Origin: Selaginella moellendorffii
Lineage: Eukaryota > Plantae > Lycopodiophyta
DNA: 64,000 nucleotides
NCBI RefSeq assembly: GCF_000143415.4
Contig: NW_003314284.1
Coordinates: 602,693 to 666,692, forward strand
Direction: 5' to 3'
This document shows positions 11,131 through 64,000 of the stretch, one piece after another. Made by a program: the position numbers and the translations under genes. The notes beneath the pieces are model-generated. The model did not search any database and was not told the DNA's origin. It worked only from the letters and a program-made list of their open reading frames with translations. The number at the start of each line of letters is the position of its first letter. Position 1 is the stretch's first letter.

Positions 11131-11239
11131 GGCAGCAGCAGATTGACAATCCAGACTCCAGGCTAGAAAGGGTGATCTTTGATATATTTACTAATGCAAA
11201 AGCCTTATAGTGCCTTATAGACATTTCAGCAGCTAACAT

Positions 11240-12910: not shown

Positions 12911-13337
12911 GATCCTATGCTAAACTTTAGATTGACATAAGAGTGGAGAGCATATATTTAAAGTATGGATAGAATTCAAATCGAAAGAGAACATATTCAC
13001 TGTCTTTCTTGTCTCAATGACTAGTTTTTCTACCCGGCCCTTCCAGAAAGAAAATGTGTCCAAGCAGCACACAACAAGGACTGAAGACCAGGAGGCCAGG
13101 AGAGGAAGATCTGCAAGATGTAGCTCTAATTTCAAATCTTGACATCTTTGCATCCATCCTCATGCTTGACAATGGATTATCTATTTATGTTATTTCGATA
13201 ATCTCGTGACTGATGGATGTAGAAAATCGAAGCCGCGATGTCGGCTCCCTCCTTCGCTGCTGCTCCCGGCTTCGTCGCTTAGTATCCAGAGTCTCGAAAA
13301 AGAAAAGACGTGTTGTTTCTAAGGAATTGAGGTGATG

Positions 13338-13418
13338 GCCACGTGGGCTGCCATAGAAAGAAGATCTATCGCGGCCACCAACTTGGACTTTAACATCATG
13401 AAAAATCAACTATATAAA
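13338..13418. promoter_or_regulatory. G-box (GCCACGTGG, 13338-13346) and TATA (13411-13418) in the divergent MFS/2OGD intergenic region
   Basis: Both motifs are visible and are retained in the second copy (CACGTG at 42990-42995). Confidence 0.5.
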
Positions 13419-13471
13419 CCGACCAATTCTATGCCATCTCGTTCATCTTATTTCCTCCTAAGTTTGTAACT

Positions 13472-31770: not shown

Positions 31771-34440
31771 ATGGCGGCGCCTCTCTATTGTTTGTGCCTC
31801 CTCTTAACTGTGTTCCAGGGTGGTCATTCTCAATCATCTCAGTCATCTATTCTCGAGGCCAGTGCTCTTCTCGAATTCAAGCGAGGTGTCAAGGCATTTT
31901 CTCCACCATGGATCTTGGATGTGCTTCCAGACCCTCTAGCGAATTGGGACGTGAGTAGCACAAGCTTGTGTAACTGGACAGGAATAGCTTGCAATCCACA
32001 AGGCCGGGTGGTATCCCTTGCTCTTTCCAATATTCCTTTGACGGGGCAAATATCATCCTCTCTCGGTTCCCTCGAGTTTCTGGAGCTGCTCAATCTGTCG
32101 TACAACTATTTGTCCGGGGAGATTCCATCGACCTTGGGTAACTGCGCCAGGCTACAGTCCCTTGATCTCACGCTCAACAATCTAAACGGAAAGATCCCGG
32201 AGTCCCTGGGCCAGCTCTCCATGCTGCAAAGCCTAATTCTTGATGCGAACTTACTTGGTGGTGAGATTCCCTCGAGCCTAGCGCGGTGCTCAAGGCTTCA
32301 GAAGCTTTCCTGCTGTTGCAATCGTCTCAGTGGACAGCTTCCAAGCTTCTTGGGACAGCTTCGCAATCTCACGCTCCTGGATCTCAGTCACAACTCTCTC
32401 AATGGTTCCATACCAAGGGGCTTTGCAAATCTCTCTAGTTTGGAAGAGCTGAACCTTGAAGGGAATGACCTCGAAGGAGAAATTCCTACGTTTCTCCTGG
32501 TGAGCAAGACTCTTGTTGGTTTGCACTTGCATGCGAACAACTTGGAATCATTTAGCTCTGAGTTTCAGGAGATTTCTCCCGAGAACAACCAGGGTCGCAT
32601 GGAAGTTTTGGAACTAGGCTACAATCAGATAACAGGCAGCATTCCATCGCAATTCTTCAGCTACTTGCCAGGTCTGAAGTTCATCTCCCTCCGGAACAAC
32701 AATCTCACAGGTGGCATCCCAGAATTTGGAGACCACTGTGTCCTGGAAACCATTAATCTGAGCACCAACACCTTAACAGGAGAGATCCCCGAATCTGTGC
32801 TACACTGCTCACAGGTCACAAAGCTGGATCTTTCGAGGAACAGGCTCACCGGAGTAATTCCATCAGAACTAGGCCGAAATTTGAGCACTTTGACAAACTT
32901 TGACGTGGCATTCAACACGCTGCATGGGGAAATCCCTGTTTCCTTGTCATTGTGCGTCAACATGAGCCGCATTGACATGGGTGTGAACAACTTCACTGGC
33001 CAGCTTCTTCCCGAAATTTCCAAGCTTGAGCAGCTTAGTTACTTTCTTATTTCGACCAACAAGTTGGTGGGGACCATACCGGTGGAATATTTCAACATGG
33101 CGAACCTTGGCACTTTGGACTTAGCGAGAAATAACCTCTGGGGCTCTCTCCCACGAGCTTGCAACCTGGCGGGCATTAGCAAGCTTGATTTGTCCTTCAA
33201 CTCACTCACGGGGAGCATTCCATCTTGCCTTGGAAACTCAAGCTCGCTGTGGACGCTGGATCTCTCGGGAAACCAGATCTCAGGAGAGATACCTTCTAGC
33301 CTGGGCGCCAATGCTTCACAGCTCTACTATTTGGACTTGTCACAAAATCGTCTGGTTGGCAGCCTTCCTGCCTCTCTAGGCAATTGCTCCAGCCTCTCCA
33401 TTCTCATGGTGGCAAGGAACCAGCTTGGAAAAATAGACATGGATTTCAGCCAGATCCATAGTCTGGTTCACTTGGATCTTTCCCATAACGAGTTCGAAGG
33501 AGATCTAGTCCTCAGTTCCAACACCAGCAACATCAGGATTGCCAACTTCCGGGATAACAGGTTCTCCATGACGATTCCAGAATCGATCTGCAGGTGGACT
33601 GCATTGACTCTGTTGTCATTCTCGTACAATCAGATCCACGGGTTCATTCCCAGCTGCATTTGGTCCAGCCTCCCGCAGCTCAAGGTTGTTGACCTGTCCC
33701 AGAACCGGCTGACTGGCAACATCCCCGGTAGCATAGGTGAGTTGATCTCCTTCAAGGACGTGAATTCCAGACCTGACGATCCCGAAGGATGGCACAACAT
33801 CCCTGGCCTGGCATGCCCAGAATGCCCCGGCGGCATGCGGTTTGAGATGATCATCAAGGGCTCGAGGCTTCCTTTCGCCCAGTATTTCAACGGTTTGACC
33901 CTGTTTGACTTGTCGTCAAACTTGCTTGAGGGCGCGATCCCGGACGATATTGGTCTACTTGTGGGTATGAAGTACTTGAACCTTTCGTTCAATGGGCTGA
34001 CTGGCAGTATCCCCCTGGCATTGACCAGGCTCGTCAAGCTCGAGTCTCTCGACTTGTCGAGCAACAAGCTCCAGGGAACCATCCCGGCCCAGATCAGTGA
34101 CTTGAGCCAGCTTGGGAGTTTCAACGTTTCCCACAACCATCTCAGTGGAATGGTTTTGGCATCAGAGCTCTTCTACACCAAGTTCGGCCCCAGTTCTTTC
34201 GAGGGAAACAATCTTTGTGGAGGATTTTATCCGTTGCAACCCTGTTCCAACACTTCTACTTCTACTCAAGCTGGCCGTGAGACGTCTTGGCTCTCCGAGA
34301 ATGTGTCCACGAAAGGCTTCTTGCTTGGCGCTCTTCTGGGTTTCTTCGGTACAATCCATTTGGTGGTTTTTGTAGACTGGAAGCAACGCCTGCAGCAAAT
34401 CAATTGGATCATCAACCACATATCTAAGCCTCGCCGCTGA
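31771..34440 (+). CDS. LRR receptor-like protein (signal peptide, LRRNT, plant LRRs with island, TM, short tail, no kinase)
   Basis: 889-aa intronless ORF; CNWTGIAC cap; LxxLxxLDLSxNxLxGxIP repeats; FEGNNLCG cap; TM segment GFLLGALLGFFG. Confidence 0.95.
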   Translation: MAAPLYCLCLLLTVFQGGHSQSSQSSILEASALLEFKRGVKAFSPPWILDVLPDPLANWDVSSTSLCNWTGIACNPQGRVVSLALSNIPLTGQISSSLGSLEFLELLNLSYNYLSGEIPSTLGNCARLQSLDLTLNNLNGKIPESLGQLSMLQSLILDANLLGGEIPSSLARCSRLQKLSCCCNRLSGQLPSFLGQLRNLTLLDLSHNSLNGSIPRGFANLSSLEELNLEGNDLEGEIPTFLLVSKTLVGLHLHANNLESFSSEFQEISPENNQGRMEVLELGYNQITGSIPSQFFSYLPGLKFISLRNNNLTGGIPEFGDHCVLETINLSTNTLTGEIPESVLHCSQVTKLDLSRNRLTGVIPSELGRNLSTLTNFDVAFNTLHGEIPVSLSLCVNMSRIDMGVNNFTGQLLPEISKLEQLSYFLISTNKLVGTIPVEYFNMANLGTLDLARNNLWGSLPRACNLAGISKLDLSFNSLTGSIPSCLGNSSSLWTLDLSGNQISGEIPSSLGANASQLYYLDLSQNRLVGSLPASLGNCSSLSILMVARNQLGKIDMDFSQIHSLVHLDLSHNEFEGDLVLSSNTSNIRIANFRDNRFSMTIPESICRWTALTLLSFSYNQIHGFIPSCIWSSLPQLKVVDLSQNRLTGNIPGSIGELISFKDVNSRPDDPEGWHNIPGLACPECPGGMRFEMIIKGSRLPFAQYFNGLTLFDLSSNLLEGAIPDDIGLLVGMKYLNLSFNGLTGSIPLALTRLVKLESLDLSSNKLQGTIPAQISDLSQLGSFNVSHNHLSGMVLASELFYTKFGPSSFEGNNLCGGFYPLQPCSNTSTSTQAGRETSWLSENVSTKGFLLGALLGFFGTIHLVVFVDWKQRLQQINWIINHISKPRR

Positions 34441-38699: not shown

Positions 38700-39199
38700 T
38701 AGTACTCAAGTGGGGCACCATTCCATAGCACCAAAGTGGGAATTGCTTTTAAGCACTTCCTTGGGTGGTTTTTTTAGCATTACCTAAGTCCATGCTCACT
38801 CCCACCTAAAGCCCTTAACCCCCAATCCCAACCTTAAGTTGGTTTAGAAGCACCACTAGAGTGTTCCTTTAAGATTAATTCCTAAATCTCACTATCCCTA
38901 TTATACTCAATTTTGGACTTGATTTCGGACTTGACTTTAGATTTACTTTCGGATTCAATTTCAGACCCAATGTAAAACTTGATCTTGAACTTAGTCTCAG
39001 ACTCAGTTTCAGACTTGGTCTTAGACTCAGTTTTAAACTCGGTTTCAAACTCGGTCTTGGACTTGGTCTTGGACTCAGTCTTGAACTTGGTCTTGAACTT
39101 GATCTCGAACTCAGTCTCATTTTATGAACTCTTTATCATTTCGATTGTGGTTTTAGGGATCCTTTAGTTTACAACACCTTGGGGAGTTGGTTCCTTATA
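38700..39199 (-). mobile_element. Degenerate, truncated family A LTR (inverted)
   Basis: Reverse complement matches the first part of 61267-62406, including the TxTAAGGAACCAACTC start and the hexamer array; heavily AT-shifted. Confidence 0.75.
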
Positions 39200-39345
39200 A
39201 CTCCACAACCTATAAAAGAAGTTCAATATTCATATCAAACATCTCTTTTTAATTTTATGACTTGTTGACCATGTTTGGGGGCATCCCCCCACTTAACAAT
39301 ATGCCTAAGTCATCCTCCCTAGATAAGAGCCCATGAAAACAAGAT

Positions 39346-40116
39346 TGTAAAAAACCAACTCTTTGAGGTGTCAAAGGCTAAAAGATCCCTAAAAGCATGA
39401 CCAAAATAATAAAGAGTTTATCAAATGAGACTGAGTCTAAGATCGAGTCAAAGACCAACTCTAAGACCGAGTTCGGGGCCAAGTCCGAGATCAAGTTCGA
39501 GACTGACTCCAAGACCGAGTTTAAGACTGAGTTCGAGACCGAGTCCGAGATCCGAGATTAGGTCCGAGATCAAGTCCGAGACCGAGTCCAAGATTGAGTC
39601 TGAGACAAAGTTTGAGGTTAGATCCGAGTTCGAGTCCGAGACAAAGTCCGAGGTCGGGTCTGAGATTGAGTCCAAGGTTGAGTCTGAGATCAAGTCTGAG
39701 ATTGACTCCAAATACTAATATGGGGTGAAAGCCCAAAGCATATGTCTCCCGAGGGGGGGCAGAGCTGCAGAGGGTTCCAAAAGTATAGTAGGGATAGTGA
39801 GGTTCAGGAACCAGTTTTGAAGGAACTCTTTAGTGGTGCTTTTAAACTGACTTGAGGTTGAGACTGAGGCTGAGGGGCCCTTGGGTGGGAGTGAGCATGG
39901 ACTTGAGGGGCCACCCAAGGAAATGCTTAAAAGTAACTCCCACTTCCTAAAAGGAAACCGACTGCAGTGCTCTTGGCTCATGTTGAGAGATGCCCCATTT
40001 GAGTACTTTGTGGTTTATTGGTCCTTGCCCTCCTTAAGGACTTGGGCCTTCCCTTTATGATGGAAATGGGGGAATAGAGGTACCCATACCAGGCTGTTAA
40101 GCCATGGTGTTTCGCC
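39346..40116 (+). mobile_element. Truncated family A LTR
   Basis: Aligns with 61267-~62043: TGTAA start, hexamer array, GTGAAAGCCCAAAGC motif. Confidence 0.8.
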
Positions 40117-41460: not shown

Positions 41461-41636
41461 ATCTCCAGGCCTGCTGCAGTTCCACGTACATGAGCACTAA
41501 ATGAACTTAGCAACGGCAAAGCAAGAATGGAGCTGTGGAGCATCCTGCCTTTGTAGAGATCTTTGGAGACCGTTCTCTCTTATAAAATAGAAGATTTATT
41601 ATTTGTATTATTTTATTTAGTTAACAGCTCGTTGGT

Positions 41637-42861
41637 TTAGTTTATTTGGAGCTTTTGTGAATGCTTGCCATCCAAATATTTTGTGTAGACATTTGTGATG
41701 TGCTCTTGGTATAAGGTTGACTTGTAGAGTGGCGGGTTTTGCTCATCAATAAGTTCTGGCAGGGGTCCTATCACAGCATCCCGTGATGGATTGCAAAATG
41801 CCACGATGGAGAGACGAGTTTGATCAGGCTGGACAAGGACTCGGTGCTCAATGCTCTTGTATTTTCCATTGCTCAAAATCTGGCATGGAAACGAACAAAG
41901 CCATGATAAAAATCAATCCAAGTCACTTACTTCAAGCTGATCAGCGATGTTCACAATGAATGCATTCTTTATAGGCTTCAAGTCGTACCAGAGATCACCC
42001 TTCCTGGCCTGGAGTCCGCCAACTTGATCTTCAAACAGGATTGTCAAACCGCCACTATCGGTGTGGCCATTCATCCCAAGAGCAAGGTCGGGATTTGGGC
42101 ACGGCGGATAGTAATTTGATCGCAAGATCATCTCCGAGTCTCCAAACGATTTCGCGAGGCAGTTTGAATCCAGCCCGAGTCCTTCAGACAAAGCAGACAT
42201 CAGAGTCTGACTCAGATGTCTCACGCTTGAAACATAGCTGGAAGCGAGCCTCCTGCAGTATCCAAGAAACCAAGCAATCTCATGAAATCCAGATTAGTCA
42301 AGCTCATTTACTTGTAGCAGGCTGGTTTTTCCGGCCACGGATGCTCTTTTTCTGTGTTTGAAAAGTAGTGCTGGAAGTGATCGTGCCACTCCATATGAGT
42401 CTCTTGAGAAGGTGTCATACTCGTGCAGTACCGCACGGGCACAAACACCTCCTCCGTATAATACTTCATCTTCTCCTCAATAGGAAGATCAAAGAGCTCA
42501 AGCACTCCATAGACCATGCCTTGCATGGTTGCAACAGGAATCCCGTGGTTGATCACCTGCATGTGACATCATATTATGAATGATCCTTTTGAGCAGGTAC
42601 ACATCAAAATACCTGAAAGATGCCCCATTCACTCGAAGCCTTGCACAAAGTTTGAACAAATTTCTCTTGGTCACTCTCCAATGCAGCCATGTCAATCACA
42701 GGGATCTCCACTCCAGGAACGATCAAATGCTTCACAGCTCGGTGGCTGGGAGGTTTGATATAACGGCCAGGAATGGTAACGAGGCCATTATCCATGAGAG
42801 CTTTGACACCCTTTGGAAGAACATCAGTCTGCTGATTGACATTTGCAACAAAGGAAGGCAT
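41637..42861 (-). CDS. 2OG-Fe(II) dioxygenase, copy 2 (4 exons)
   Basis: Near-identical inverted copy of 13472-14696 with intact splice sites and HTD/H/RLS motifs. Confidence 0.93.
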
Positions 42862-43387
42862 AGCTACAAAATTAGGAGGAAACAAGATGAACGAGGTTGC
42901 ATAGAATTGGTGGGTTTATATAGTTGATTTTTCATGATGTTAAAGTCCAAGTTGGTGGCCGCGAAAGATCTTCTTTCTAGGTGGCAGCCCACGTGGCCAT
43001 CGCCTCAATTCCTTAAAACATCACGTCTTTTCTTTTTCGAGACTCTGGATAGTAAGCGACGAAGCCAGCAGCAGCAGCGAAGGAGGGAGCCGACATCGCG
43101 GCTTCGATTTTCTACATCCATCAGTCACGAGATTACCGAAATAACATAAATAGATAGTTGTAAGCATGAGACCGATGGATGCGATTGAAAATTAGAGCTA
43201 CATCTTGCAGATCTTCCTGGTCTTCAGTCCTTGTTGTGCGCTGCTTGGACACAATTTCTTTCTGGAAGAGCCGGGTAGAAAAACTAAGAAAGACTGTGAA
43301 TATGTTCTCTTTCGATTTGAATTTCTTCCATACTTTAAATATATATGCTCTCCACTCTTATTTCAATCTAAAGTTTAGCTTAGGATC

Positions 43388-45055
43388 ATGGTTGGGACGA
43401 TCAAACACCTCTACAACAGTCAATGGATGGTTGCATTGGCAAGTTTCTTCCTCATGATCTCCACGGGAGGAGCACTCAACAATTTCAGCCTCTTCTCGCA
43501 GCATCTCAAGCTGTCCCTCGACTACAACCAAAAAAATATCAACACCATAAGCTTATTTAAGGACGTTGGCACCAGCGTCGGGATTCTCTCCGGCCTCGTC
43601 TATGATCTCACCGGGCCCTGGGTCGTGCTCCTCCTTGGATTTGCGCTAAACTTTGCTGGATACTTCACGATATGGCTGGCTACAACGCAGAGAATCGCAC
43701 ACCCCCATGTCTGGGAACTGTGCTTCTATCTCTTTATGATCGGCGCATCGGCAGCCTTCACCACCACCGCTGTTCTTGTGGCCTGTGCCAAGAATTTCCC
43801 CAAGAACCAGGGCATGGTTCTTAGTCTTCTCGACAGTACGCAGGGATTGAGCGTTGCGATATTCACGCTGCTTTACCAGGCCTTCTTCTCTCACAGTGAC
43901 GATTCATTCGTTCTCTTGCTGGCCTGGTTTCCATCGCTCTTGTGCCTTCTCTTCGCGTTTTTCATTCGATCCGTCCCACTCGACGGCCGCTACAATGACT
44001 CGAGAACGCTCTTCGTCTTCGTGTCAGTAACTTTGATCCTGGCTGGATATCTCATGGCTATTATCATCCTCCAGCACTTCGTGCGCCTAGAATCTCGGAT
44101 CATCAAGGCCTTCTTTTCCATTATGCTGATCATTCTCTCCATCCCAGTTCTTGTGGTTCTGAGACAGGAATCCAAAACCCTCCGGCATCGCCATCGCGAA
44201 GAAGTTGATGTTGATCTAGTGGAGAACGCAGCGATAGAAACTCCTCAAACAGATTATCAAGACGTAGATCCTCCGGATCATGGGGCAGACGCCGCTGCTC
44301 CAGCTATCGCCTCGCACATTTCGATCTTCTTCTTTAAAGGATCGCCCGTCAAGCGAGGAGACGATTTCACAATCTTCCAGGCGCTCTGTAGCATCGACAT
44401 GTTTCTCATCTTCGTGGCTTCAACCTGTGGCATTGGCGCTGTGCTAACAGTGACCAACAATTTCGGCCAGATTGGAACGTCCCTTGGCTACTCCCAGGCC
44501 GGAACAAACACTTTCATCGCCCTCCTTAGCATCTGGGACTTCATCGGTGGCGTTGGCGTTGGCTTCATCTCGGATATATGCCTCGCCAGCTATGGCGTCG
44601 CAAGGCCCTTCTTCCTGTGCCTGGTTCTCTTGCTTCTGTCGCTTGGGAGCTTGATAATCGCTCTTGGGCTTCCCGGAGCGCTCTTCTACGGCTCGGTTTT
44701 GATTGGGTTGTCAATCGGTGGCCAGTGGTCGGTTCTTTACACCATGATAGCGGAGATCTTCGGGCTCAGGTTCTATGGGACGCTCCAAAATGTAACTTAC
44801 GTCGCTAAGGCGCTGGGAACTTATGTTTTGTCCGTCCGGGTGGCAGGAGTTTTATACGACCGCGAGAGTAAGCTTGGACCGAGCAATGGAAGTCTGGATG
44901 GTGATGAGCTCCTTTGCCATGGACCACATTGCTACAGAACAACCTTCTTTGTCATGGCTGGAGTGTGCTTGTTTGCATCCATTGTGAGCTTGATCTTGTC
45001 CATTAGAACAACAAAGTTTTATAGTGTCACTCTTCGAAAGAGATTAACTGGTTAA
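43388..45055 (+). CDS. Nodulin-like MFS transporter, copy 2
   Basis: 555-aa near-identical paralog of 11240-12910. Confidence 0.93.
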   Translation: MVGTIKHLYNSQWMVALASFFLMISTGGALNNFSLFSQHLKLSLDYNQKNINTISLFKDVGTSVGILSGLVYDLTGPWVVLLLGFALNFAGYFTIWLATTQRIAHPHVWELCFYLFMIGASAAFTTTAVLVACAKNFPKNQGMVLSLLDSTQGLSVAIFTLLYQAFFSHSDDSFVLLLAWFPSLLCLLFAFFIRSVPLDGRYNDSRTLFVFVSVTLILAGYLMAIIILQHFVRLESRIIKAFFSIMLIILSIPVLVVLRQESKTLRHRHREEVDVDLVENAAIETPQTDYQDVDPPDHGADAAAPAIASHISIFFFKGSPVKRGDDFTIFQALCSIDMFLIFVASTCGIGAVLTVTNNFGQIGTSLGYSQAGTNTFIALLSIWDFIGGVGVGFISDICLASYGVARPFFLCLVLLLLSLGSLIIALGLPGALFYGSVLIGLSIGGQWSVLYTMIAEIFGLRFYGTLQNVTYVAKALGTYVLSVRVAGVLYDRESKLGPSNGSLDGDELLCHGPHCYRTTFFVMAGVCLFASIVSLILSIRTTKFYSVTLRKRLTG

Positions 45056-45925
45056 TAAATGTTAGCTGCTGAAATGAACAGTAAACTTCTATAAGGCCAT
45101 AAATATTTTAAGCAATTACTCACTTGAGTTATTATTTTAAATGCAAAGTCAAACCAGCCTATTGATGGTTGATGTTTTATGGAATAATTTCTCAATAAGA
45201 CAGATAATCATGCAAAAGAAAGACCATGAGATTCTCTTGTATGCAATGGATATTAATATATATGATCAAAAAGTAAAAAATTGTAACAATCATTAGCAAA
45301 TATTTACTATTTAATTTGGTGAAATTAAATACAGTGTAAGACTTCTTTTGGTAGATAAAGTGATTAGAAGCAGTATACAATAATCTTCATGATAATAAAT
45401 TACATGAAAAATTAGAAACTCAAAAAGTAAATAATAATTAACTAACTATAAAATAGAGAGAGCATAGGAAAAAAATTATAATGAAGATTGCCACATGGCA
45501 AGTTGCCCAAAGACAAATACAAAATCTATTTACTAACACTAATGCTTTAGTTTTAAAGTATATTATCTTGAATATTAAACAGACCTTTGAAATTTTCATT
45601 ATTTTGCATTTTTAATAAGAAAAATCATTTGCTGCACTTTGCATGTAGCAATGTTTGGTTATAATAGTGTCATTCCTGTTTACTATTATTGAATAATCTA
45701 AATGATCAATAATTATAAATACATTTATAACTTACAGGTTTGCTCAAGCAATCCAAAGTATTCAATTATAATAATTTACTCTTTATAAACTCTTTAATTA
45801 TAAATTTAGGTTGTAATAGCTAAAGGGCTATTTAATTTTACCATTATCTAAGACTCTTAATTGATGTATATTTCATAATGACAATTTGGTTCCATTCTTC
45901 AGACAAAATCTATAAACAAAGTTCA

Positions 45926-51115: not shown

Positions 51116-51805
51116 TCACCTGATAAACACCATCACGGGCATGGTGTTGATGGGAACACTTAAGCCAGCGATGCTGTCATGGTCCGTCACTATGGCTCCC
51201 AGACGTGGAGTCTCTCCGAAAGGTCCTCCACTGCTACTACTTGCACCTCCAGCTTTGAGACAGTTTACACATCGTTTGACGCACACGACATTAGATTCGC
51301 CTTTCTTCTTCTGGTGCTTCTGCACGGCGTAAGTTGTATCAGCCGACTCATTCACTCGTGCCAGCTTCTCGAACACAACATGCTCCGCACAGTTCTCGAA
51401 GTCGCGGCCCTTACTGGGCTTGGCCTCTTTATCCTCGTCGAGAAGTGCCAAGTGGAGCCTGGAATGGGTGTCATCATCAAAAGCTGAGACTTGAACTCCC
51501 AGCCTCTTCTCCACATCCTTGATGCTTACTGGATTTGGCCTACCGCCTGCCATGTCCATCCTCAAACGAACGTTAGCACCCACAACTCTCGTTCCTTGTT
51601 CCGTGATTCCACAGCACAACACATCGCTCACTTGCCCCTTCTTTGCATGCTCAATAGGAGCCTGGCGAACCAACATCCCCAAGTGCAAAATGCGCAGGAA
51701 ATGGATGAATGCGTCCCCATCGCCGAGACCTGGAATACCTTGCAATGCATTCCACAGCTTCTGAGCATCGGCAAGGTTCACCTGCTCAGAATCCTTTGAG
51801 GCCAT
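51116..51805 (-). CDS. Intronless orphan protein, putative zinc-dependent (cytidine-deaminase-fold) deaminase
   Basis: 229-aa ATG-initiated ORF; strand pair VLCCGITEQGTRVVGANV, then C139-A-E141, strand TTYAV and C179-x-x-C182. Confidence 0.6.
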   Translation of the reverse strand: MASKDSEQVNLADAQKLWNALQGIPGLGDGDAFIHFLRILHLGMLVRQAPIEHAKKGQVSDVLCCGITEQGTRVVGANVRLRMDMAGGRPNPVSIKDVEKRLGVQVSAFDDDTHSRLHLALLDEDKEAKPSKGRDFENCAEHVVFEKLARVNESADTTYAVQKHQKKKGESNVVCVKRCVNCLKAGGASSSSGGPFGETPRLGAIVTDHDSIAGLSVPINTMPVMVFIR

Positions 51806-52966
51806 GGCTTTTTGAGAAACGCCGTCCTGCTGAAGGTTTATTTATCAGATGACTCGGCGATCGTAAAGAGAGGGAGAAAAATAAAAAGAAATGTTTGACA
51901 CGTCTCATGCACAAATTGACATTCCATCAGAAAGCTATTATGTCACGCTTGAAGTTGTGATGGCGATTGAGGCCTCCAACTTGTCAGTTGATGATCTACT
52001 TCTTTAGTTCCGTCTCTGACTGCAGAAAGGTCGAGTGCTACGATGCTCCACTCAGTTTTGTGCCAATGAAAAATAAAAACTTTTAACTCATGTGCTTACC
52101 CTACAATGCTTAGCATGATCGATCTAGCTTAAAGTTCGTCAGCTGGATTTTGGAGAGGCGAAGACGGAACCTTTCTCGCGTTAAACGCACCTCTAAATCT
52201 TGAAATGCTGGGCAGACCTTGAATGAGCTTCGAAAAATTTCTAGTACCTGTTTTTGCTAATGCTCACTCTTTGAAGCTTGCACTTCTCCTCTTTGTTTAT
52301 CATTTCCTTTTCTTTTTGAATTTGCCATGCATTAGTTTCCTGAAATCTGTGGTAAGTGAATAGCAAACCTTGGTTTTCTATATGCCCAGGCCCTTCTTGC
52401 CCAATCTTGGTTTCTTTTTCTTTGGTGCAGAAACACCAGATCTGCTCGTTGAGTCTCCATCTTCCACTCCCACATCTAGTCAAAATCGACATAAACACAA
52501 ATGTCCACTGTCACTGGCCATGTGAAAGTCTCTCTCTCTCTCTAAATATAATCTTCTAACAACAGCAACGACGACTTTGTGAGTACCTCACTGCCACCAC
52601 AAACCTGCACGATGTTCTTGCCATCGTTGAACCCGTCCCCAATTCTGCCTAGTGGTAGATAAGATGATGCCCTTAGTGGGTCCTTATGGCGTGTTATTAT
52701 TGTATATATGGCAACTGAACGAGGGTCAGTATAATCAATCTACGCTGTCCAGGCTATATATTGTTATTGCAGCCCTCCAGGGGCTTTCTATCCGGCATCT
52801 CTTGACTTTGCTTGTTGTCTCCAGTGTGAGTTTGTGGTTCGCCCACTGTCCTCAAGGCTCTCAATGTTGGAGAGAAGCTGACTATGAATGAAGTGCTTGT
52901 GTCCCCAAACGCGCGCTACAAGGCTTGCTCTTGCTCATGAGCAATGACGGCGATGTCATAGCAAGT

Positions 52967-53280: not shown

Positions 53281-54715
53281 AAGAAGGTTGAAGACGCCAG
53301 TGGTGGCTACTATTTAACACTGCATGAGGACGCCACTGATTGAAAAGGAGACCATTGATATTGTTCTGTGGCAGAATGGGATTAGCGAGGCAGAAAGACC
53401 TGAATATCAGCTGGTTGTTACCAATGATCCCATGCTCTATGTCATGGTGGATGGCAAAACTGTGAACATCATTCTGGAATGAGTGCCTGACTCGAATATG
53501 TGTATGTACTTTGGGCAATGTCAAGATCTCGACATTGCAGAATTTGGACGTTTACATATATATGGTCTACCTGTTCTTTTCGTTGCTGGCCAAGATCAGC
53601 ACAAAAGAGAAGAAATCTTAAGGTATGGCCTCTCCATGTACTCTTCAATATTTTGTTTCTTTATTCCTTCACTACGATCTGCTCATATCTATCTGTAGGC
53701 AGCAGGGGGAACAACCACTGCTTGGATGTTGGACATTAGTTTGGGGACTGGGTTGCTTCAAGCATCACTCTAGACTATGGCGAGGAAGAGACAGACATTT
53801 TTCCATTCCATCTCAGTTAAAAACCACATGCCTATTCATCTAGAACAGAATTTGAACAACTCCTGGTCATTTCAGAAATAGAGGCAACGAGAGTCAATAG
53901 CTATCTCAATCGATTTCACCAGAGCAGCCAGACCTGGAGACCATCCCAGTTAAGGAGACAATGCTACACTGAGACCATTGGCCCCAATGATAGAATTGAG
54001 TTTTGTCACCCATGCGCCTGAAAGGTTTTGGATTAGGGAAAGAAATAGGCAAACTGCCTAGAGTTTCGAGATCAAGGATCTACATCGGAATTTAAATAGA
54101 ATCAAAACACCGTGTACCTGAGAGTTCAAGGGTCGGGATGAGAAACGTCTAGACTGCCCTCCACGGTTGCTTCAGAACGATATGCCAAACTTTGCTTGTA
54201 GCCATTCCTGAAGAGCTGCATCAAACCTAAACGTTGGATACAGTATAACCTGAAAGCTATTTGAACACGTATTAAATTAAAGAAGAGCGGGCCAAGTAGC
54301 CCCCGGTGATCAAACATGTTGTTATAAGCTTTCAAGGATTACTGGCCAATTGCAAGGCTATGGCGAGGAAGAGACGAAGATATTGTTCCATATCTACAGA
54401 GGGTGTGAATCCACACACACTCACACACATACGCTGTTAATTGAAAGAGGTTGTTTTCTTCTTTTTTCTTTTGGAAGCTAAGCATTAACTAACTGTAGCA
54501 ATTGCAGCATTTTTTGTCATTAAAATCTTTAAGAGATATACACTAGGTTGGTAATAAAACACAGTTGTCCATTGCCACTGGCCATGTGAAGCTTAGATGT
54601 CTGATGTTACCTCCTTGGTTGCTTTGGTGTATGACAGTACACACTTCACCCACTGACCGATGTTCAATATCATGTGGTTTTTTTCTTTAAAATAATCCTC
54701 GATCATGTCTGATTT

Positions 54716-55432
54716 TTGTCGGGGGAGATTCCATCGACCCTGGGTAACTGCCCGAGGCTACAGTCGCTCGATCTCACGCTCAACGATCTCCAAGGAAAGA
54801 TCCCGGATTCTCTGGGCCAGCCCTCCATGCTGCAAAGTCTTTCTCTTGATGTGAACTTACTTGATGGTGAGATTCCCTCGAGCCTAGCACGGTGCTCAAG
54901 GCTTGAGAAGCTTTCCTGCTGTGGCAATCGTCTCACTGGCCAGCTTCCAAGCTCCTTGGGACACGCCTCTTAATCTCAGCTACAATGGTTCCATACCAAG
55001 GGACGTTGTGAATCTCTCAAATTTGGTAGAGCTGCTCCTGGAAGAGGAATGACATCGAAGGAAAAGTTCCAACTTTTCTCTTTCCGCACGACTTGCTGCG
55101 AACAAGTTGGAATCATTTAGCTACGATTTCCAGGCCGATGGAGTCGTATGGAGGTTCTGGAACTAGGCTTCCACCAGATAACAGGCAGCATTCCATCGCA
55201 AAACTTCATCTACTTGCCAGGTTTTTGAAGCCTCATCCCAGGAATGAAATTTGAGCGCGTTGACAAACTTTGACATGGCATTCAACATGCTGCATGGGAA
55301 GTTCCTGTTTCTTTGTCCTTGTGCGTCAACATGAGCCGCATTGACATGGGCGTGAACAATTTCAGTGGCCAGCTTCTGCTGGAAATTTCCAAGCCTGAGC
55401 AGCTTCAGTTCTTTCTTATTTCGACCAACAAG
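54716..55432 (+). pseudogene. Deleted and frameshifted copy of part of the LRR-RLP (source ~32109-33063)
   Basis: SGEIPSTLGNC.RLQSLDLTLN and following sequence match at nucleotide level, with internal deletions and an abrupt 3' truncation. Confidence 0.9.
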
Positions 55433-55880
55433 CTATACAAGCTTTATTTCGTTAAAGTGAAAATTGTCATTATCCCACTTGTAAAATAAGGTTTCCAAAC
55501 CTTTATATAGTATATAAATATAACAAAATTCAACTGCATTGAGGCACATGCCATTTTATTTTAAATAAGGAAATGTCTACTCAATCACTTCTTCTCCCCC
55601 TGCCACTGCTTCACCTCTCTCTTCTCCTTGTCATCGTTGTTCAATTTCTTTCCATCCTTTTAATATTGGCTCAGTTGCTTCGAGTCTAGGTGGAGCCCAA
55701 GTCCCCATTCAATCTTTACTTTCCCCTTATTAATAAAAGAACTACGTAGACTTCCAATAACATGCTGTAACACTTCTAGTATAATGCAAATCCTCTCAAA
55801 GAATTGTCTTTTAATATTAATACAATGGCATGGAACCCCATGCCATAATAAGTTACATTTTTAAATAAATACATGCCATC

Positions 55881-58800
55881 TCAGACTGTTATTTTTTGCC
55901 TCCAACGCCTATACAATAATCTTGGAATTTCATCACTCTCCACACTATCAGGATTTAAACTCAATAGTAATGCCATCTCTTCTCTAATACGTCCACGCTC
56001 ATGTTCAGTGGTCGAAGAACCCATCCGGTTGAGCAGATTATGGAGATGCGGATAGTGCTTGGCTAGACAATATACATGCCATAAATGATGACTGGTGTCT
56101 GTCCGATCAAATGGCTTTTGATATACCATTCCATCTGCCATTTGGTTGATTTCTGCAGCCACCTCCTGGACTGGCCAGTTCTCTATCACCATCGCTCCAA
56201 GCCGTTTTGCAAGGTCCCCCAGAACATACGGTTTCTTCTCCCTAGTTTCCATACTGCAAGAGATGGGTTGCACTGCATATGTGTGCGTGTTCGCTGCAGT
56301 TTTAATCGGCGAGTCATCGATGATGAGGATTTCACTTGACCTAGCAGTCCGGTTCATCACTACAGCCTCTGGCTTGACGAAGATGGGCTTGCTACCCCTC
56401 ACATGGACCATAGTCAAGCAATCCTCCTGCGTTAGGAGAAAGTCAAATGGTAATATTACTCGCGTCTGATCGTGCATCATCTGTAGCAACGTTAATGCAT
56501 TGTGGCGCATCATGGATGTCCAAACTCCCAATTGCAAATTGAACCCGGCCCTCTGTTTTAAGTGTCGCATGGTCATTATTAGATCCCGCAGTTTCTCCCG
56601 TGTGATTAATGTGAATCTGTCTCTTTTGACCAACTTGCGACCGCAGACTTTGGAGGGTGTAGTGACATTCGAGGACGAGCCACGCTCATGGGAGAAAAGG
56701 ACATCGTTCAGATAAAAAATGATACAGTACCTTCGCCGTGACTCTGAAATGAAATGCGTCAGCATAAAAAATGGTACAAGTCAATTTTACCATCTACAAT
56801 ATTAGCGAATGGTGCTCCCGATGGTCGTTGAGAGGGTTTTGGTCGAGGAAACGTGAAGGGCGGAAATACTCTCCTCTGCAATGTGGGGTCAATCGCATCC
56901 GATGGCGTGTGGGCACATGCCATTTCAGCTGTAGACTCTGGTATAACTGGCTCAACAGTGGCATGGGGTGGTTTCGATGGCGTGTGATCACACGCCATTT
57001 CAGCTGGTGCCTCCATTGGCAAAGTGGACATGACCGAACAGGCAGTAGGGGTGGTGTAGGGAGGTTCCAACGGCGCGTAGTCAGACGATTGGGCACACGT
57101 TGAGTCCGTTGGAAATGAGGATACGACCGGCTCGGCGGCTGGGGCGGCCTCATGCGGGTCCAATGGCGCCTGGTCACCATCAGTTGGATACGTGGACAAG
57201 ATTGACTCAGTGGTATGGGCAGCATCAAGTGGAGTGTGGTCAGCTTGCTTGGCGTTGATATGGATAGTAGCCTCCACCAGCTTTGATGACTCTTGCAGGC
57301 AAGTAGAGCCCACTGGCGGATCCATATGCATGTCCAAATATCTCCCTTCGATTGAGATGGTATCCTCCCTACTGGCTACTAAAAACAAACTCATTAGCAC
57401 ATTGAATCGACTATACTGTATTTACCATCAACTGCTATTGAGGAACTAGGACCGATATCACTTGGGCGCACTGCTGATTCTGAAGGATTGGACATACGTT
57501 TCGACCCTTGATTGGCACTATCCTTCCTCGACACTAAAGGCTAGAGTTTGTATCTTAATTCAACTGAATAATCTCTACTTACTATTTGCTTTGCAACCTA
57601 CATGGACAATGTTAGAAATGGTAAAAGGTTAGGAATGGATGTACTATTATTTACCTGATGGTTTGTCTTGTATGACCTTCCTCCGTTGCTCTTTGGCCAT
57701 CTCAGGCTGGCCATCGTCGTCATCATCGTCGTCGTCGTTATTGTGATCATCACCATTGTGAGGACCATCCAAGTCCTCTTCGTCCTTCTCTTCTTCGTCC
57801 TCCTCTTCTTTGTCCTCCTCTTCGTCCTTCTGCTCTTCCTGCTCATTATCTTTCTCTGGCTCCTCATCCCCCTCCTGCATTTCTTCCATAGGCTGCTCAG
57901 GCTGGATGGCTTGTTCTTCCAGGACCATCTTGGGAAAATCATCTGGCCGAGTCTCCATCTCAAAATACAAGACATCCATAGTCTGTTTTAGTGCGTGACC
58001 TAGGACCGTATCCTCACCCGACTGTCTTAACATGGTTTCTGCACGTTCTTGCACCCTTCGAAGATGACGAGATGAGAAAAACGTGGCCCTGACTTGAAAA
58101 GCATCCCTCATCCATTGTACCTTTCCATTGAGATTGGGGAAGGGGAGTTTGCCATAGGAATCTGAGTCAGGAGGTGGTGACTGGCTGCTTTCACTCAGCC
58201 CTTGATTTGCAATGAATGGCATGAGCACACACGCCATAACTGCGAGGCATTACCTATCATCTTTTCGTTGCCCTTCTTCCTTTTCGAATCAAACGCCTCT
58301 GATCCCGACAACTGTCCAACGTGCTTTCGCTTTTTATGACCACTGTCAGTTTGAGCTTGGCTGGTGCTTGCCTGTTTTGCCTTTGAAGAAGTGTCTCTTG
58401 CAAGGAATGGCATGAGACCACACGCCATTGCAAATATAATTTGTACCTCCTTTTTTCCTATTGCTTGTCTGTTTGTCCTTCTTCGACGCACCACCAGTGC
58501 GCTTTTCAGTCCTCGTGTCTGAATATTCACAACGATCTATAATCAAAATGGCGTGAGGCCTCACGTGACCTTACCTTGTGCAAGTTGAGCTCGGCCCAAC
58601 ATGGGTATCTTCAACAGTAGCTGTTAACGCCGTTTCAGCATCTGGGGGTGGCCACGCTCCTGCATATAGAGCTTGTGAGATAACATTTAAACTTAAAGTG
58701 CGTACTCACCAAGTTCGCAGAGAAGATACTATTTTTCTTTGGCAACTGTAATTATATGCTCCATTGAAGTCACCTCTTCAATGGAGTTTGTCACCGCAAC

Positions 58801-61800
58801 ACACGGGACACCCTTGAGTAGTGCGGCTCGAAAGAATAGTCCGCCGCAGTTGTACTCGACAACGCATTTGCCCTTGGAGTCGGAAGCAGGTGACTCACCC
58901 GCTATTGCGTTGAAGACCCAGCTGAGCATTTCCCATGCTGCACCTGGAGCTTTCTCTGGATTCGAAAGCTCCATAGCCGTCTTCAGTTCCTCAGGCACGG
59001 GTAAATTGACCTCCCTCAGATCAATTCGATCGGCCTTGTCGAACGAAGCTGGGAAGTCACTCCAGTCCCACTCTACTGTAGGACCAATAACAAGGGCGAG
59101 TGTGAAGATGTGGACATTCGTCAGTATCTTCTTCTTAGCCATTATCCCATGGATCTCCTGCATCTCCTTGCCTTTCAACCGAGCCTTCACCTCGTTCAAG
59201 GCCTTCTAGAACTTGTGATAGGATTCGGAGTCGTAGATCATATAGTGGATTGAAGATTCCACCTTCGCAAGTCCCACCATTAAGTCAATGATGGAGCTGA
59301 CTTCGTCTGCATGAGTGATCTCCTCGTTTGTGAAGTCCATCACACAAAAGATGTTCTTGATCTGCTCATCTCCGCGGGAAACGATGCTCCTCCACCTTTG
59401 ATCCTCATCCGAATTCATGTATACCCAGTAAGGTTCTCGATAGGCCTCTGCTGCGGGGTCGAGTTGTTTCTGAAGCCGGCGGTCGACATCCCTCTTAATG
59501 AAATTTGGATACTGATCCAACTTCTCAGCTTTACTTTTCGTGGCATCCCGCAGCAGATCGATGAACTTGGGGGCCCCCTTCACGTACTCGTCGATGTCTT
59601 CATTTGACAACTCCAGCTCTTCCATCATCTCTTGTGTGGTGTCGATGCTCACCCTCTCCACGGCCACTTGCTCGAAGATCCAATCCTTCAATATCGCACG
59701 AGCTCTCAGAGTCGTGCACAAGTCCTCATATGTCACAATATGGCCGGGAGTCATTTTGGTCTTGTTGAAGACTACTTCACCACGTAGAAGAGCATTAGCC
59801 ACTATCAGAAAGTCGTTGTCGTCTAGAGACCGCGAGAAACGGAAGGCGTTGAGCTTCAAATCATTGGGCTTCCGGCCGTCCTCCACACCCATTGAGTTTA
59901 GCAACTCCCCGTCATGGTACCTCCTCAGCACATCTACCCATTTGTCAAAAACAACTTTTGTCGCGAGTAGAATGTTATGGATGCTGAGTGTGTCATTGAC
60001 CCCCAGTGTTTTTGAGAGAAGACTCGAGAATTCCTGCAATGGAAATGGCGTGAGGCCACATGCTATGCCACATGCAACGAGGCTTACCTGCCAGGCGCTA
60101 GTTGCTAGTGCACGTCCTTGTCCTGGTTTTTGTGGCTTCTTCAGTTGAACCCAGAGCTTCCGTGTTCGTGCCAATGTCTCGTGCAGACCCGATTTGTAGC
60201 ACGTTTCTTGCTTGACATTCTGCGCATGGGAGATGTATATGATAGATCGGAGGGGCGAGTTGCCTTTTATCAGGCGGACAACTCTTGTCTTGAAGACTTT
60301 CTTCACCTCCTCGCCCACCATAATATCCACAACTATCTCTTGCATCGCCAAGCTAGAATGCTGCCCGGAGACAGCATAGAACTGGATGTTCTGATCGTCC
60401 AACACCTTCCTATTGATCAAGTCTGGAAACCTCGTCTCGCCCTTCATTGTTCGGTAGTAGGGGATCACGTCTGCGATGTCGGGTGTTACTGGACTTGCCA
60501 GCATCTTCTGCTTCAGTTTCTCCACCCACTCATCAGATACTAGCCTGTGGTTGTATTTGCTTTGGATGTCGATACGGCTCACGTCAATTGTATATACTTT
60601 GTTGGAATAGTAACAAGTACTATTATCTGCGATGATTTTTGCTGCCTCTTCTTGCTCTTTCTACTCTTTGCAGCTCTTCTTTTTGGTGGGTGTAGTGTTT
60701 GAACCCGAGGCAATGGCATCACCGAGTAGCTTATTTTTTGGAGCAGGAGAGTCGGACGTCGGCTTGAGCTTGACCACCCTTTTCTGCTTCGGGGTAGTTT
60801 CCAGATCGACCCCCTTCCCCTTCGCTTCGCGAACTGGAGGCACTCTCAACGGCTCAATGTTGGAATATAGTTTTTGAACATCGCCATAGGTGAGGTCCGT
60901 GGATTCCATGTGATCTTCATAGACCCGCAGCATCTTTGAAATTGTGGGCCTCCTGGACAACCTCTCCCTAGCTCCCTCTAGGAATTCCTCATAGCCGCTG
61001 CCCCCCTCCGGGAAGCCGCTAGGATGTGCAAGGTGGATCTTGAAGGCGGACGCTGTCTCTACCACAAGTGCCAGTCCATATTCTTGCATGGAACTGCATG
61101 GAGTGTCTGTCACTTGGATGAGGATCCCCATGCATTCTTTTCTCCCACCATCTGTGTTGTATAGCCTCAGATCCTCGCCTTCCATCCCGAAAGTCCAATT
61201 GGTGAGCTCCTCCCCCTTCTCTGCATCCACATTGACAGTGGCTGGAAGAAGAACGCAATTCCTCGCTGTAAGGAACCAACTCGCCAAGGTGTCGTAGGCT
61301 AAAGGAACCCCGAAAGAATGACCAAAATGACAAAGAGTTCATCGGATGGGACCAAGTCGAAGATCGAGTCCAAGACCGACTCTAGGACCGAGTTCGAGAT
61401 AGAGTCCGGAATCGAGTCCAAGACCGACTCGGGGACCGAGTTCGAGTCCGAGTTCGAGACCGAGTTCGAGACGGAGTCCGAGATCCGAAATCGGGTCCGA
61501 GACCGAGTCCGAGGTCGAGTCCGAGGTCGGGTCCGAGATCGAGTCCGAGATCGAGTCCGAGACCGAATCCAAAGTCGGATCCGAAATCGGGTTCGAGATC
61601 GAGCCAGAGACTAAGTCCAAATACTAATATGGGTCAAGGGGTGAAAGCCCAAAGCGTGCGTCTCCCAGGGGGGGGGGGGGGGCTGCAGGGGGTTCCAAAA
61701 GTATAGTAGGGATAGTGAGGTCCAGGAACCAGTTTAGAAGGGACTCTCCAGTGGGGCTCCCAAACTGACTTGAGGTTGGGACTGAGACCGAGGGGCCTTG

Positions 61801-62450
61801 GGTGGGAGTGAGCATGGACTTGGTTGGTGCCGGAGGGGCCATCCAAGGAAGTGCTCAAGAGCAGCTCCCACTCCCGAAAGGGAAACCGATTGCGGTGCTC
61901 CCGGCTCATGTGGAGTGGTGCCCCACTTGAGTACCATGTGGCTCATTGGTCCTCGCCCTTCCTAGGGGCTTGGGCCTTCCTTCGGGATGGAAGTGGGGGG
62001 CGAGAGGTACCCATACCGGGCCGCTAGGCCACGGTGTTTCGCCCCGGCGTCCCGAAGCAAGTGTTGCACTCAAGACTTGGGATTTAGAGGGTCCCATGAT
62101 CAAGTCTTGTGGTACCAAAGGATGTTAGGAACCTGGAAGCTTGGTGTGCTTGGCTGCTTGTGCTTGCGGGGAGTGTAGCCAAACCTTAAGTCCAGTCTAA
62201 CCCGGGGAGGGGGATTGGGAGTGATTTGGGAATCCATGGATGGATGGCTAACACTCCGTTGCTCGTGCAGTGAGTAGCTGAGACCAAGTAGGAGCTGGTA
62301 CCATAGGCGAGAACCTTGGCAAGGGAACTTAGCAAAAGCCAAGGCGGTGTTGGGCGGATAGACGAGGTAAGCTGGCAAATTGGAAAGGAAAAATTTGTGG
62401 TTTACACTTGCCTGTTCAGAAATGCACAACAATTAGAGCTGACAGATGAA
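55881..62450 (-). pseudogene. Large multi-exon, probably TE-borne gene: N-terminal region, ParB/Srx-like, degenerate N6A/N4C-methyltransferase-like, acidic/repetitive linker, FCP1/SCP (HAD)-like
   Basis: ORFs 60661-61287, 59206-60582 and 58729-59199 share one frame broken only by TAGs. Downstream ORFs link mostly via phase-1 GT-AG introns (one junction needs a frameshift). Motifs FYAVSGQHSSLA; NPEKAP...GKCVVEYNCGG...AALLKG..CVAV; LGVWTS...TQEDC...LIIDDSPIK. Confidence 0.6.
61267..62406 (+). mobile_element. Solo LTR, family A (1140 bp)
   Basis: TGTAA...TTACA termini; flanks CTCGC (61262-61266) and CTTGC (62407-62411) form a 5-bp TSD with one C/T mismatch; homologous to 1-152 and 39346-40116. 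Confidence 0.88.
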
Positions 62451-64000
62451 AAGCTAGCAGCTGGAAATAACGTGAGGCCACACGCCATTCACCACTGCAT
62501 CAGATGTCTTGAGGCTGCATCCTAAGATGGCGTGAGGCTACACGCCATCTGTAACCGGACTGCACTCGAGAGCCCAATCGGTGCATGCCAATGTTGCTAC
62601 TGAATGGCATGTGGCCTCATGCCATTTTCTACTTGGCCTAAAAGACTTACCATTTGAAGCCGAATGAAGGCGTGACAATCGAGGCCAGACTCGCTGGCGA
62701 ATGTGCACTGTGTGTGCAGCGGATCGTAGCAGCAAGGCTACTCTACCACTTACAGTTGGAGAGTGGCGCTGAAATCTCCCGGGATGCCAAGTGGGCTGTG
62801 TGTGGGTGGCGGAGTGGGCGGCGGAGTTGGCGGCGAAGTTACAAATTGGGTGTGTCTTGAAGTGGACGCCGATGCACACGAGCGCGATGCGAGCGCGAGT
62901 GTGATGCAAGCGCGAGTGGACGCCGATGCACACGAGAAACCTGTAGAGAAGGTAGATGAGTGCGAATGTGAGCGTGATCGCGAGTGGGAGCGCGATGCGA
63001 GCGCGAGTACGATGCAAAACCTAACCTCACACGCGTGAAATGTCACGACGGTTGGTAATCCCGCCACATCATCATTCCTCGGACTTGGGGGCCACCATTA
63101 ATTTCTGGATCGCCGCGCGCATGCATGCACATGAAATCCAAAAGAAATCCGCAACGTCATCATTCCTCGGACTGCATGCACGCGAAATCCAAAAGAAAGA
63201 TCATGATTGAGATATCATTTAATACCCTCGCTATATTTATACCATGCATGATTGGATATTCCAAAGCATCTTGTATTTCCAAAAATGCCAGATGTTCAGC
63301 TAAATAAAGAATGGTATACAATGTCCTTCTTGATGACCCTGCAAAGAAGCATCTCGATCGGACATCACATGAGACCACACGAGCCTTACAATGTTTCAGG
63401 GGCATTTGCCATAGATCCGACCGTTATTTTGCTCCAAGATTCTATAGTTTGGTGTGCATTGACCTTTCCATCGACACTGCAAAGGGACATCACAATCAGA
63501 TGCGGGATCACAAGAAACCAACTTCACTAACTCTGGTTTCACCAAGATCTACGTAAGGAGTTATGAAATGAAAGGACCCTCTCTATTGAAATGTGTTTAT
63601 GGTCCTAGGGGCATTGTGACATATCAAAGGATTTTGCATCAAGTTCTGTATTTACATGTTTATCAAGCTACTGAATTGCTAAACCCTAAACCCTCCCTAA
63701 ATATGTGGCAAATGTTGCGTGAAGAAAGATGCCCTTTCTGGGCAAATGCTGTAAGAGGCAAATGCCGAGCAGTTACACGGCGAATAATCTTGGCGCGGAT
63801 CGCTGATATGGCATGGCAAAGTTCGAATCATTGACATGGCATAGCTGGATCGAGGCAAGGACATGATGTGACAAAGTTCAACGTCTGACAGCAAAGTTTA
63901 GAAGGTACTCAGTTTGAAATTTGTCAGAGGAATTATAAAATCTGGTTTGTCAGAGGATTTGATGTGACGTTCAAGCGTGTGGGCTCATGCAATTTTGATC

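Follow-up and report, generated by a model that had tools for sequence, protein, structure and literature searches.

A multi-copy element of Selaginella moellendorffii with a predicted ParB-like, methylase-like and NIF-like protein and a dispersed 22-bp palindrome

Accessory genes of several large mobile elements have been proposed to act on the DNA that carries them. In Ectocarpus, the element Sola1-1_Ec32 has an accessory gene with ParB and N4C/N6A methyltransferase parts, proposed to bind and modify its own element (PMC12477816). In Bostrychia, Plavaka elements carry the accessory genes PAG2 and PAG3; the ParB-like PAG3 adjoins inverted-repeat arrays, to which it is proposed to bind, and the accessory genes switch transposon superfamilies (bioRxiv 10.1101/2025.02.11.637652). 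In Arabidopsis, VANC of the VANDAL transposons binds a family-specific motif mainly in non-coding parts of the element (PMC5735166). Here we describe a locus in a 64,000-nucleotide stretch of Selaginella moellendorffii (contig NW_003314284.1, positions 602,693 to 666,692 of the forward strand; hereafter the window, numbered from its first letter), in which a multi-copy element is visible from 55452 to 64000. The locus is a decayed copy of a young multi-copy element, likely a cut-and-paste DNA transposon. Its large predicted spliced gene joins a ParB/sulfiredoxin (Srx)-like core, a methylase-like domain and an FCP1/SCP (NIF)-like last exon, and likely encodes a non-catalytic protein that would recognize a 22-bp palindrome of its own element.

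The locus resembles Sola1-1_Ec32 in having a fusion of ParB-like and amino-methyltransferase parts on a large eukaryotic repeat, but it differs in its land-plant host, in the loss of the methylase motifs, in the FCP1/NIF-like fusion and in the dispersed 22-bp palindrome; the main text on Sola1-1_Ec32 has no occurrence of "palindrom" (PMC12477816). A Sola transposase, terminal repeats and a 4-bp target-site duplication were not found in the visible part of the element, and the likeness to the algal protein is one of description. With Bostrychia the locus shares a ParB-like accessory protein near inverted repeats, and an adenine-methylase-like accessory gene is present there too. However, in Bostrychia ParB is fused to a 2-oxoglutarate (2OG) oxygenase, a different gene combines the methylase with SET, and the repeats stand in tandem arrays. 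Here a single predicted chain contains the ParB, methylase-like and HAD-like parts, and the repeats lie scattered, in most cases with one to an intron. The VANC21 motif is different again, being a 9-bp word in a single orientation and arrayed, and hypomethylation was shown there by experiment (PMC5735166). VANC serves here as a model only; homology of VANC to the protein was not seen, no search having been aimed at it. Compared with bacterial ParB/Noc and sulfiredoxin, the predicted core fold is alike, and the Noc/ParB alignments extend over 211-315 columns, past the core; in contrast, the Box II arginine is replaced by Ser/Thr here, identity is about 12%, and no ParA gene was seen.

Dam methylases fused to ParB and a helix-turn-helix (HTH) are also known from chlorophytes and chytrids, in an account whose available text makes no mention of Selaginella (Iyer et al. 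2016, PMC4738411). No paper was found on a land-plant version, on the NIF fusion or on the lost motifs; Repbase and the bioRxiv supplements lay outside the search and may list the family. A preliminary description of this DNA had called the system undescribed, a claim that finds no support in view of the ParB-methylase gene on Ectocarpus Sola1-1 and the ParB accessory genes of Bostrychia. What is new here is a land-plant variant of the published algal design, with a NIF fusion and lost motifs. Overall, the observation in that description was partly confirmed and its interpretation partly supported.

The gene lies on the minus strand. Ten predicted exons between 61266 and 55881, separated by nine GT-AG introns of 47-57 nt, encode 1,640 residues; introns of this size are in keeping with Selaginella. 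The first of these exons (60088..61266) would encode an N-terminal domain, a basic linker and the ParB/Srx-fold core. After a 54-nt in-frame intron (60034..60087), a second exon (58710..60033) covers a predicted helical domain followed by the beta-class methyltransferase-like domain, and seven predicted exons (56791..58659) make up a low-complexity basic, acidic and Pro-rich linker. The predicted last exon (55881..56743), with the FCP1/SCP (NIF)-like HAD domain, is in phase with the upstream exons. At the 54-nt intron, homolog fragments from raw contigs end and begin, and the annotated Calypogeia, Riccia and Selaginella proteins are without the insert. Upstream, sequence and phase suggest a possible start ATG (62653-51) and a 239-nt first intron (together 62412..62653, minus strand); the ATG stands directly before the splice donor at 62650 and could be the protein start.

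The single frame reported earlier from 61266 to 58710 does exist, but it holds three TAG stops (60663-61, 59208-06 and 58731-29) as well as the in-frame 54-nt intron; the motifs quoted from it were found. Likewise, short introns do link the downstream open reading frames (ORFs) to 55881, but the link needs 2 nt that are absent at 58585/6 in the window copy, within the linker exons. Without them the joined exons contain 51-70 stops in all three frames, and with two N inserted one frame has the three premature stops and the terminal stop only. Run X20, taken for RNA by guess, crosses two predicted introns uncut and may be DNA. Neither of two other runs bears on expression: raw run X23 (about 12% covered) gave partial reads only, on simple repeats and the long terminal repeat (LTR) described below, and run X24 gave 0 reads on 58150-59400, without an organism control.

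The ParB/Srx reading of the N-terminal part is supported by structure prediction. An AF2 model of 643 residues has a mean predicted local distance difference test score (pLDDT) of 65, with the core blocks mostly at 70-92. Among the ten best rows of a Foldseek search of the PDB, nine are Noc/ParB and one is a sulfiredoxin (probability 0.77-1.00; best E 4e-3, at probability 0.99), the matches including 7ol9, 7nfu, 6t1f and 1yzs. Against viral structures, the named rows at E<=1e-3, four of five, are phage ParB-like proteins (E 2.6e-4 to 9.6e-4). As modelled, the N-terminal core has the ParB/Noc/sulfiredoxin fold. A match to DndE among PDB sequences (E 1) was set aside as noise. In place of the Box II motif GxxR the protein has GQHS (60366-60355). 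All 17 stored homologs, which include several near-identical cluster mates, likewise differ at the arginine position, 15 with S and 2 with T. Loss of this arginine abolishes nucleoside triphosphate (NTP) binding in the ParB-fold proteins tested (PMC12704722). The candidate parS-like site, with binding predicted only, is the 22-bp palindrome.

Kinship of the next domain to the beta-class amino-methyltransferases, as first proposed, finds support in profile evidence: a profile of six homologs, built without the protein here, gives the protein 27.0 bits, while none of 200 shuffles exceeds 2.8, and the six-row family profile places M.RsrI first in the PDB (E 6.4e-4). The region in one homolog is also weakly like phage N6_N4_Mtase clusters in the atlas (0.86). 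The reading of NPEKAP as HPxxKP is ambiguous, the family alignment putting NPEKAP one motif upstream. At the DPPY place the protein has DFTN (59337-59326), and at the FxGxG place EYNCGG (58857-58840). The Asp of DPPY is kept in 7/7 rows and PPY in 0/7, while a GG turn at the S-adenosylmethionine (SAM) loop is found in 5/5 rows reaching it. The absence of DPPY had been remarked on from the window copy, and it extends to the family majority and to all six aligned homologs, which are without PPY. Intact copies retaining DPPY/SPPY and FxGxG, which had been thought worth looking for, are not what the majority represents: its DFTN and EYNCGG are those of the window copy.

The last exon had been read as an FCP1/SCP HAD domain without the catalytic DxD. 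It is NIF-like, and a NIF part is fused in a Riccia gene model, but the Pfam score of the exon is under the cut-off (see below). The DxDx(T/V) place reads YLNDV in the window copy; the first Asp of the motif is not one C-to-T-type change away, and the majority state is not among the 40 rows listed out of 277.

Relatives of the protein are found in non-seed plants, as had been supposed, namely in liverworts and one lycophyte. A full phmmer scan gave 15 matches at E<=0.001 (E 5e-10 to 9e-4), the named homologs coming from Selaginella moellendorffii, Calypogeia fissa and Riccia sorocarpa; the match P0008, repetitive and of low complexity, was left out of all alignments and counts. Word-indexed homolog searches with the 484-residue ORF, with alignment A2 and with P0020 found nothing. 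With profile A5, a cytochrome c555 match at E 1e-4 consisted of three short pieces, none above 9 bits, and was set aside as noise. In Riccia, three related models lie on three long contigs. The automatic gene model R1sor_025532 has the ParB core, N6_N4_Mtase and NIF in the same order in one chain, with E 2e-12 to the protein here for the ParB core, E 5.8e-4 (under the cut-off) for N6_N4_Mtase (PF01555), and E 1.9e-5 (24.8 bits) for NIF. Metagenome and viral contigs yielded no relatives to a six-homolog alignment without the protein here, and phage tblastn gave nothing for this protein or the Riccia protein. Within S. moellendorffii, the annotated relatives SELMODRAFT_409495 and 416075 (P0002/P0017-P0019), on two scaffolds, cover the methylase-like part but start just downstream of where the ParB core would finish, and are possibly a domesticated or truncated form; both stop once the methylase-like part is complete.

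A further lead comes from a language model, by which the best look-alike of the 484-residue ORF is DUF3723 (PF12520), at 0.96 with 189-192 of 256 features shared. The atlas recognition value for DUF3723, 2157, is under the 2300 mark, and the lead is an unconfirmed one. Pfam PF12520 gave no match to the protein at E<=1, and no tyrosine recombinase (DUF3435 in Starships, at their 5' end) was seen, the 5' end being outside the window. DUF3723 is a conserved cargo gene of fungal Starship elements (bioRxiv 10.1101/2021.12.13.472469), and is alike in being a passenger of large mobile elements.

The palindrome was overlooked in the preliminary description. The pattern ATGGCRTG-N6-CAYGCCAT occurs at nine sites within 2 mismatches, seven of them exact, against 0.04 expected from shuffles, and all nine lie within 55825-62625, inside the element only. 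The pattern was derived from the same sites, so that the chance figure errs on the generous side, but with an excess of this size the effect is immaterial. Two extra sites in the element have 3 mismatches and one perfect half each; two matches with 3 mismatches outside the element put that level near noise. The spacer is symmetric as well, reading WG-NN-CW in 9/11 sites. From the 3' side of the gene, a degenerate site with 3 mismatches (55533..55554) and an exact one (55825..55846) are in 3' non-coding DNA, and two exact sites (56902-56923 and 56977-56998) lie inside a Pro-rich exon. Three more fall one per predicted intron within 58216..58569 (exact at 58216 and 58407, 3 mismatches at 58548), one with 1 mismatch lies in the 54-nt intron (60045-60066), and three are in the possible first intron (62467, 62527 and 62604). 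Thus 7/11 are in predicted introns; in the modelled coding span 4/6 are intronic, although introns could accommodate a site at about 5% of positions there (p 1e-4). In metagenomes, a pattern of one palindrome and a nearby half site had no matches.

Single contigs of the public DNA run X7 cover the element at depths of 73.7-80.2, against 2.4 on the contig of the leucine-rich repeat (LRR) flank. Depth is no true copy number, yet it suggests about 30 copies. The window copy differs from X7 contigs at 36/2326 and 50/~3470 letters, about 1.5%. The earlier multi-copy claim thus agrees with contig depth, and copies are found to be numerous, little diverged and sharply bounded, by a measure that says nothing on their dispersal. 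In most copies the three stops are sense codons (60663, 59207 and 58731), as the reconstruction by TAG-to-CAG changes had supposed, but two are Gln and one is Trp, and not all are CAG. The missing 2 nt are present in the X7 consensus contig and in one X3 contig; no X1 contig has them, coverage being low there. The LTR that was to be removed in the same reconstruction is a solo LTR (TGTAA...TTACA, 61267..62406) at the 5' end of the gene, inserted on the predicted 3' splice site and flanked by a 5-bp target duplication with one mismatch (CTCGC/CTTGC, 61262-66 and 62407-11). Most copies of the family lack it, and the LTR-less joint is present in contigs of X1, X7 and X20, which skip it. The gene is real and the window copy is dead, with three premature stops, the 2-nt loss and the solo LTR.

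The decay has a particular form. The window copy departs from the majority at 20 letters in 58150-59400. Of these, 19 are C-to-T on either strand, and 17 of the 19 are at CG/CHG sites, which account for 203/601 cytosine sites in that interval. Judged by its sequence context, this pattern is a trace of host methylation. In the same part of the gene, at 58181-58245, minor DNA contigs are without 60-63 nt that make up most of an intron with a palindrome (X1 depth about 7,200/~750,000; also in X3); their ends are not splice sites, so that they are likely deletion variants.

The left boundary of the element is sharp. A fragment of an LRR pseudogene in the host flank (54715..55432, plus strand, low contig depth; Pfam LRR_1 E 1.7e-11) matches the LRR gene at 32109-33063 to 78-90% and stops short at 55432, while the paralog runs on past 33063. 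The LRR gene is cut, as had been noted. The abrupt start ascribed to insertion is less clean, however, as 55433..55451 is a 19-nt junction that copies ACAAGCT and TTATTTCG of the LRR flank. Because these 19 bases duplicate two short pieces of the flank, they are likely repair filler, and the left junction looks repaired, without a target duplication. The X7 family contig begins at 55452, where TTAAAG does not reveal the superfamily.

The right end of the element lies beyond the window. A region end at 62625, as first given, does not hold: repeat-level depth persists up to 64000, and the window copy departs from the family sequence only at 63981 (loose ends in runs X1 and X7), which makes the element larger than 55432-62625. 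Further element DNA thus occupies 62654..63981. At 63981 the copy joins a half palindrome (63972-63993), and the junction is likely an internal deletion. Three other observations concern this upstream part. The four bases 63308-63311 are flanked by loose ends of X7, which would fit a further insertion in part of the copies with a 4-bp duplication. At 63680-63700, telomere-like CTAAACCCTAAACCC lies within the element, and near 63694 similar repeats are found on loose ends of X1. At 63355-63390, an intron-like GTAAGG...CAG contains a degenerate palindrome core; it suggests that a second spliced minus-strand gene, upstream of the ParB-like gene, finishes here, in a region without a significant Pfam match.

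How such a protein might work can be outlined from these features. All three catalytic signatures are gone (GQHS for GxxR, DFTN for DPPY, YLN for DxD), and because of this the product is likely a sequence-specific scaffold and not an enzyme, as far as its motifs tell. Most simply, a dimer would bind ATGGCRTGWG-NN-CWCAYGCCAT, the contact being made by the helical domain that follows the ParB core; ParB and Noc likewise bind palindromes. Without the Box II arginine it would not load or slide as an NTP clamp, and may instead stay on or bridge the dispersed sites. The methylase-like domain would be a DNA- or methylation-touching scaffold that writes no mark, and the catalytically dead FCP1/SCP-like domain may bind a phosphoprotein, most simply the tail of RNA polymerase II. 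Together these steps would shield the family specifically from host CG/CHG silencing, or tune that silencing, in the way that VANC acts for VANDAL. The window copy failed: it received an LTR, its CG/CHG sites decayed by C-to-T changes, and it likely lost an internal segment. On the analogy with VANC and the methylation pressure on the window copy, family-specific anti-silencing or transcriptional support is, with moderate confidence, the function we favour.

Several results weigh against this account. For the 1,640-residue protein, no ParB or methylase matches were obtained in Pfam, PHROGs, NCBIfam, PDB sequences or phage genomes, and no Foldseek PDB row reached E 0.001 for the ParB-core or methylase model. 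The model of the methylase part is poor (pLDDT 54, predicted template modelling score 0.59): its best E-values are to TIM barrels and methylases rank 13, 32 and 35, although the highest probability (0.60) and TM-scores (0.34 and 0.39) belong to M.BceJIV and Mbo45V Mod. Pfam NIF on the last exon gives E 7.7e-4 and 19.6 bits against a cut-off of 21.8; a PDB relative of the NIF-like part was not found, and alignment of this part with the Riccia NIF part was not significant (E 1.2). The 60087-60034 intron has homolog support and all other joins are predicted splicing. A transposase was not found in 55452-64000, the visible part of the element; a terminal inverted repeat was not seen at the left end, nor an inverted match to it downstream in the window; and a target-site duplication was not found at the left junction, the right end being outside the window. 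Finally, the binding, anti-silencing and polymerase-tail steps are proposals.

The alternative that survives best has the protein bind its palindromes to aid transposition, pairing or shaping the element for the transposase, with no epigenetic role. CACTA TnpA reportedly acts so with subterminal repeats, and ParB-family proteins bridge DNA. The sites are spread through the element, two of them less than 400 bp from its left end, and the internal junction lies in a palindrome. But 7/11 sites are in predicted introns and not at the ends, and a protein with methylase-like and phosphatase-like parts would sooner be expected to act on chromatin or in transcription. The alternative is unlikely. A somewhat smaller chance is given to a different vehicle, the locus being multi-copy cargo of a Helitron-type element, a non-autonomous giant repeat or a recently amplified host locus. 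The missing transposase, terminal repeat and target duplication would fit, as would the shorter S. moellendorffii relative without the ParB core, known from only two scaffolds. A Helitron 3' end (CTRR) was sought at the left end and not seen, and six frames of 63079-63980 gave no significant Pfam match. The sharp depth step at the cut host gene, the divergence of about 1.5% and the transposon-type methylation decay speak instead for a DNA transposon, and the published relatives, so far as their accounts extend, sit on DDE transposons.

It is also improbable, and more so than a different vehicle, that the methylase-like domain is still active through a non-canonical site and writes N6-methyladenine (m6A) or N4-methylcytosine (m4C) on the element, as proposed for the algal elements. 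The conserved Asp and GG turn would suit such an enzyme, but PPY is lost in 7/7 rows, FxGxG is altered, and the family majority shares both changes with the window copy. That the ORFs are separate genes, with the NIF-like exon unfused to the ParB-methylase part, is very unlikely: the joins are not backed by RNA, the linker is of about 500 low-complexity residues and S. moellendorffii P0002 ends after the methylase part, but nine canonical short introns hold one frame, the last exon lacks a separate start, most copies have a sense codon where the window copy has its stop after the methylase part, and the Riccia model carries all three parts.

Elsewhere the plant DNA of the window contains pentatricopeptide repeat (PPR), LRR and transporter-like ORFs and pieces of LTR retrotransposons. 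A large inverted duplication (11222-14870 and 41475-45076, main arms 94-98%, about 27-30 kb apart) holds two copies of a transporter-like ORF of 558-559 aa. LTRs of the solo-LTR family recur at 1-152, about 1100-8000 and 38700-40116; the likeness is 95% between 1-152 and 62255-62406, and 77% between 39346-40116 and 61267-62043. On the minus strand, 51116-51841 is a stop-free frame of 241 aa with no Pfam match.

According to the Bostrychia preprint, no transposon system other than VANDAL/VANC is known to bind its own sequence and modify it (bioRxiv 10.1101/2025.02.11.637652), and self-binding by the ParB-type accessory genes of algae is a proposal, with no site tried by experiment. The scaffold reading of the Selaginella family offers a concrete candidate pair of protein and site. 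The palindrome is nearly absent from the rest of the window, the family is young and its majority frame is open, which makes the idea of self-recognition testable. The module would be extended to land plants, where it persists without its catalytic motifs, and there is a lead on the Starship gene DUF3723. A bolder proposal, to which we give little credence, is that a transposon-borne triple pseudo-enzyme of non-seed plants keeps three folds without their chemistries, reads a family-specific 22-bp palindrome in its introns and tethers phosphorylated RNA polymerase II at these sites, so that the family stays active under CG/CHG methylation, with a ParB-derived ancestor common to it, DUF3723 and the algal PAG3. 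If this were true, one self-recognition module would be common to the giant mobile elements of fungi, algae and plants.

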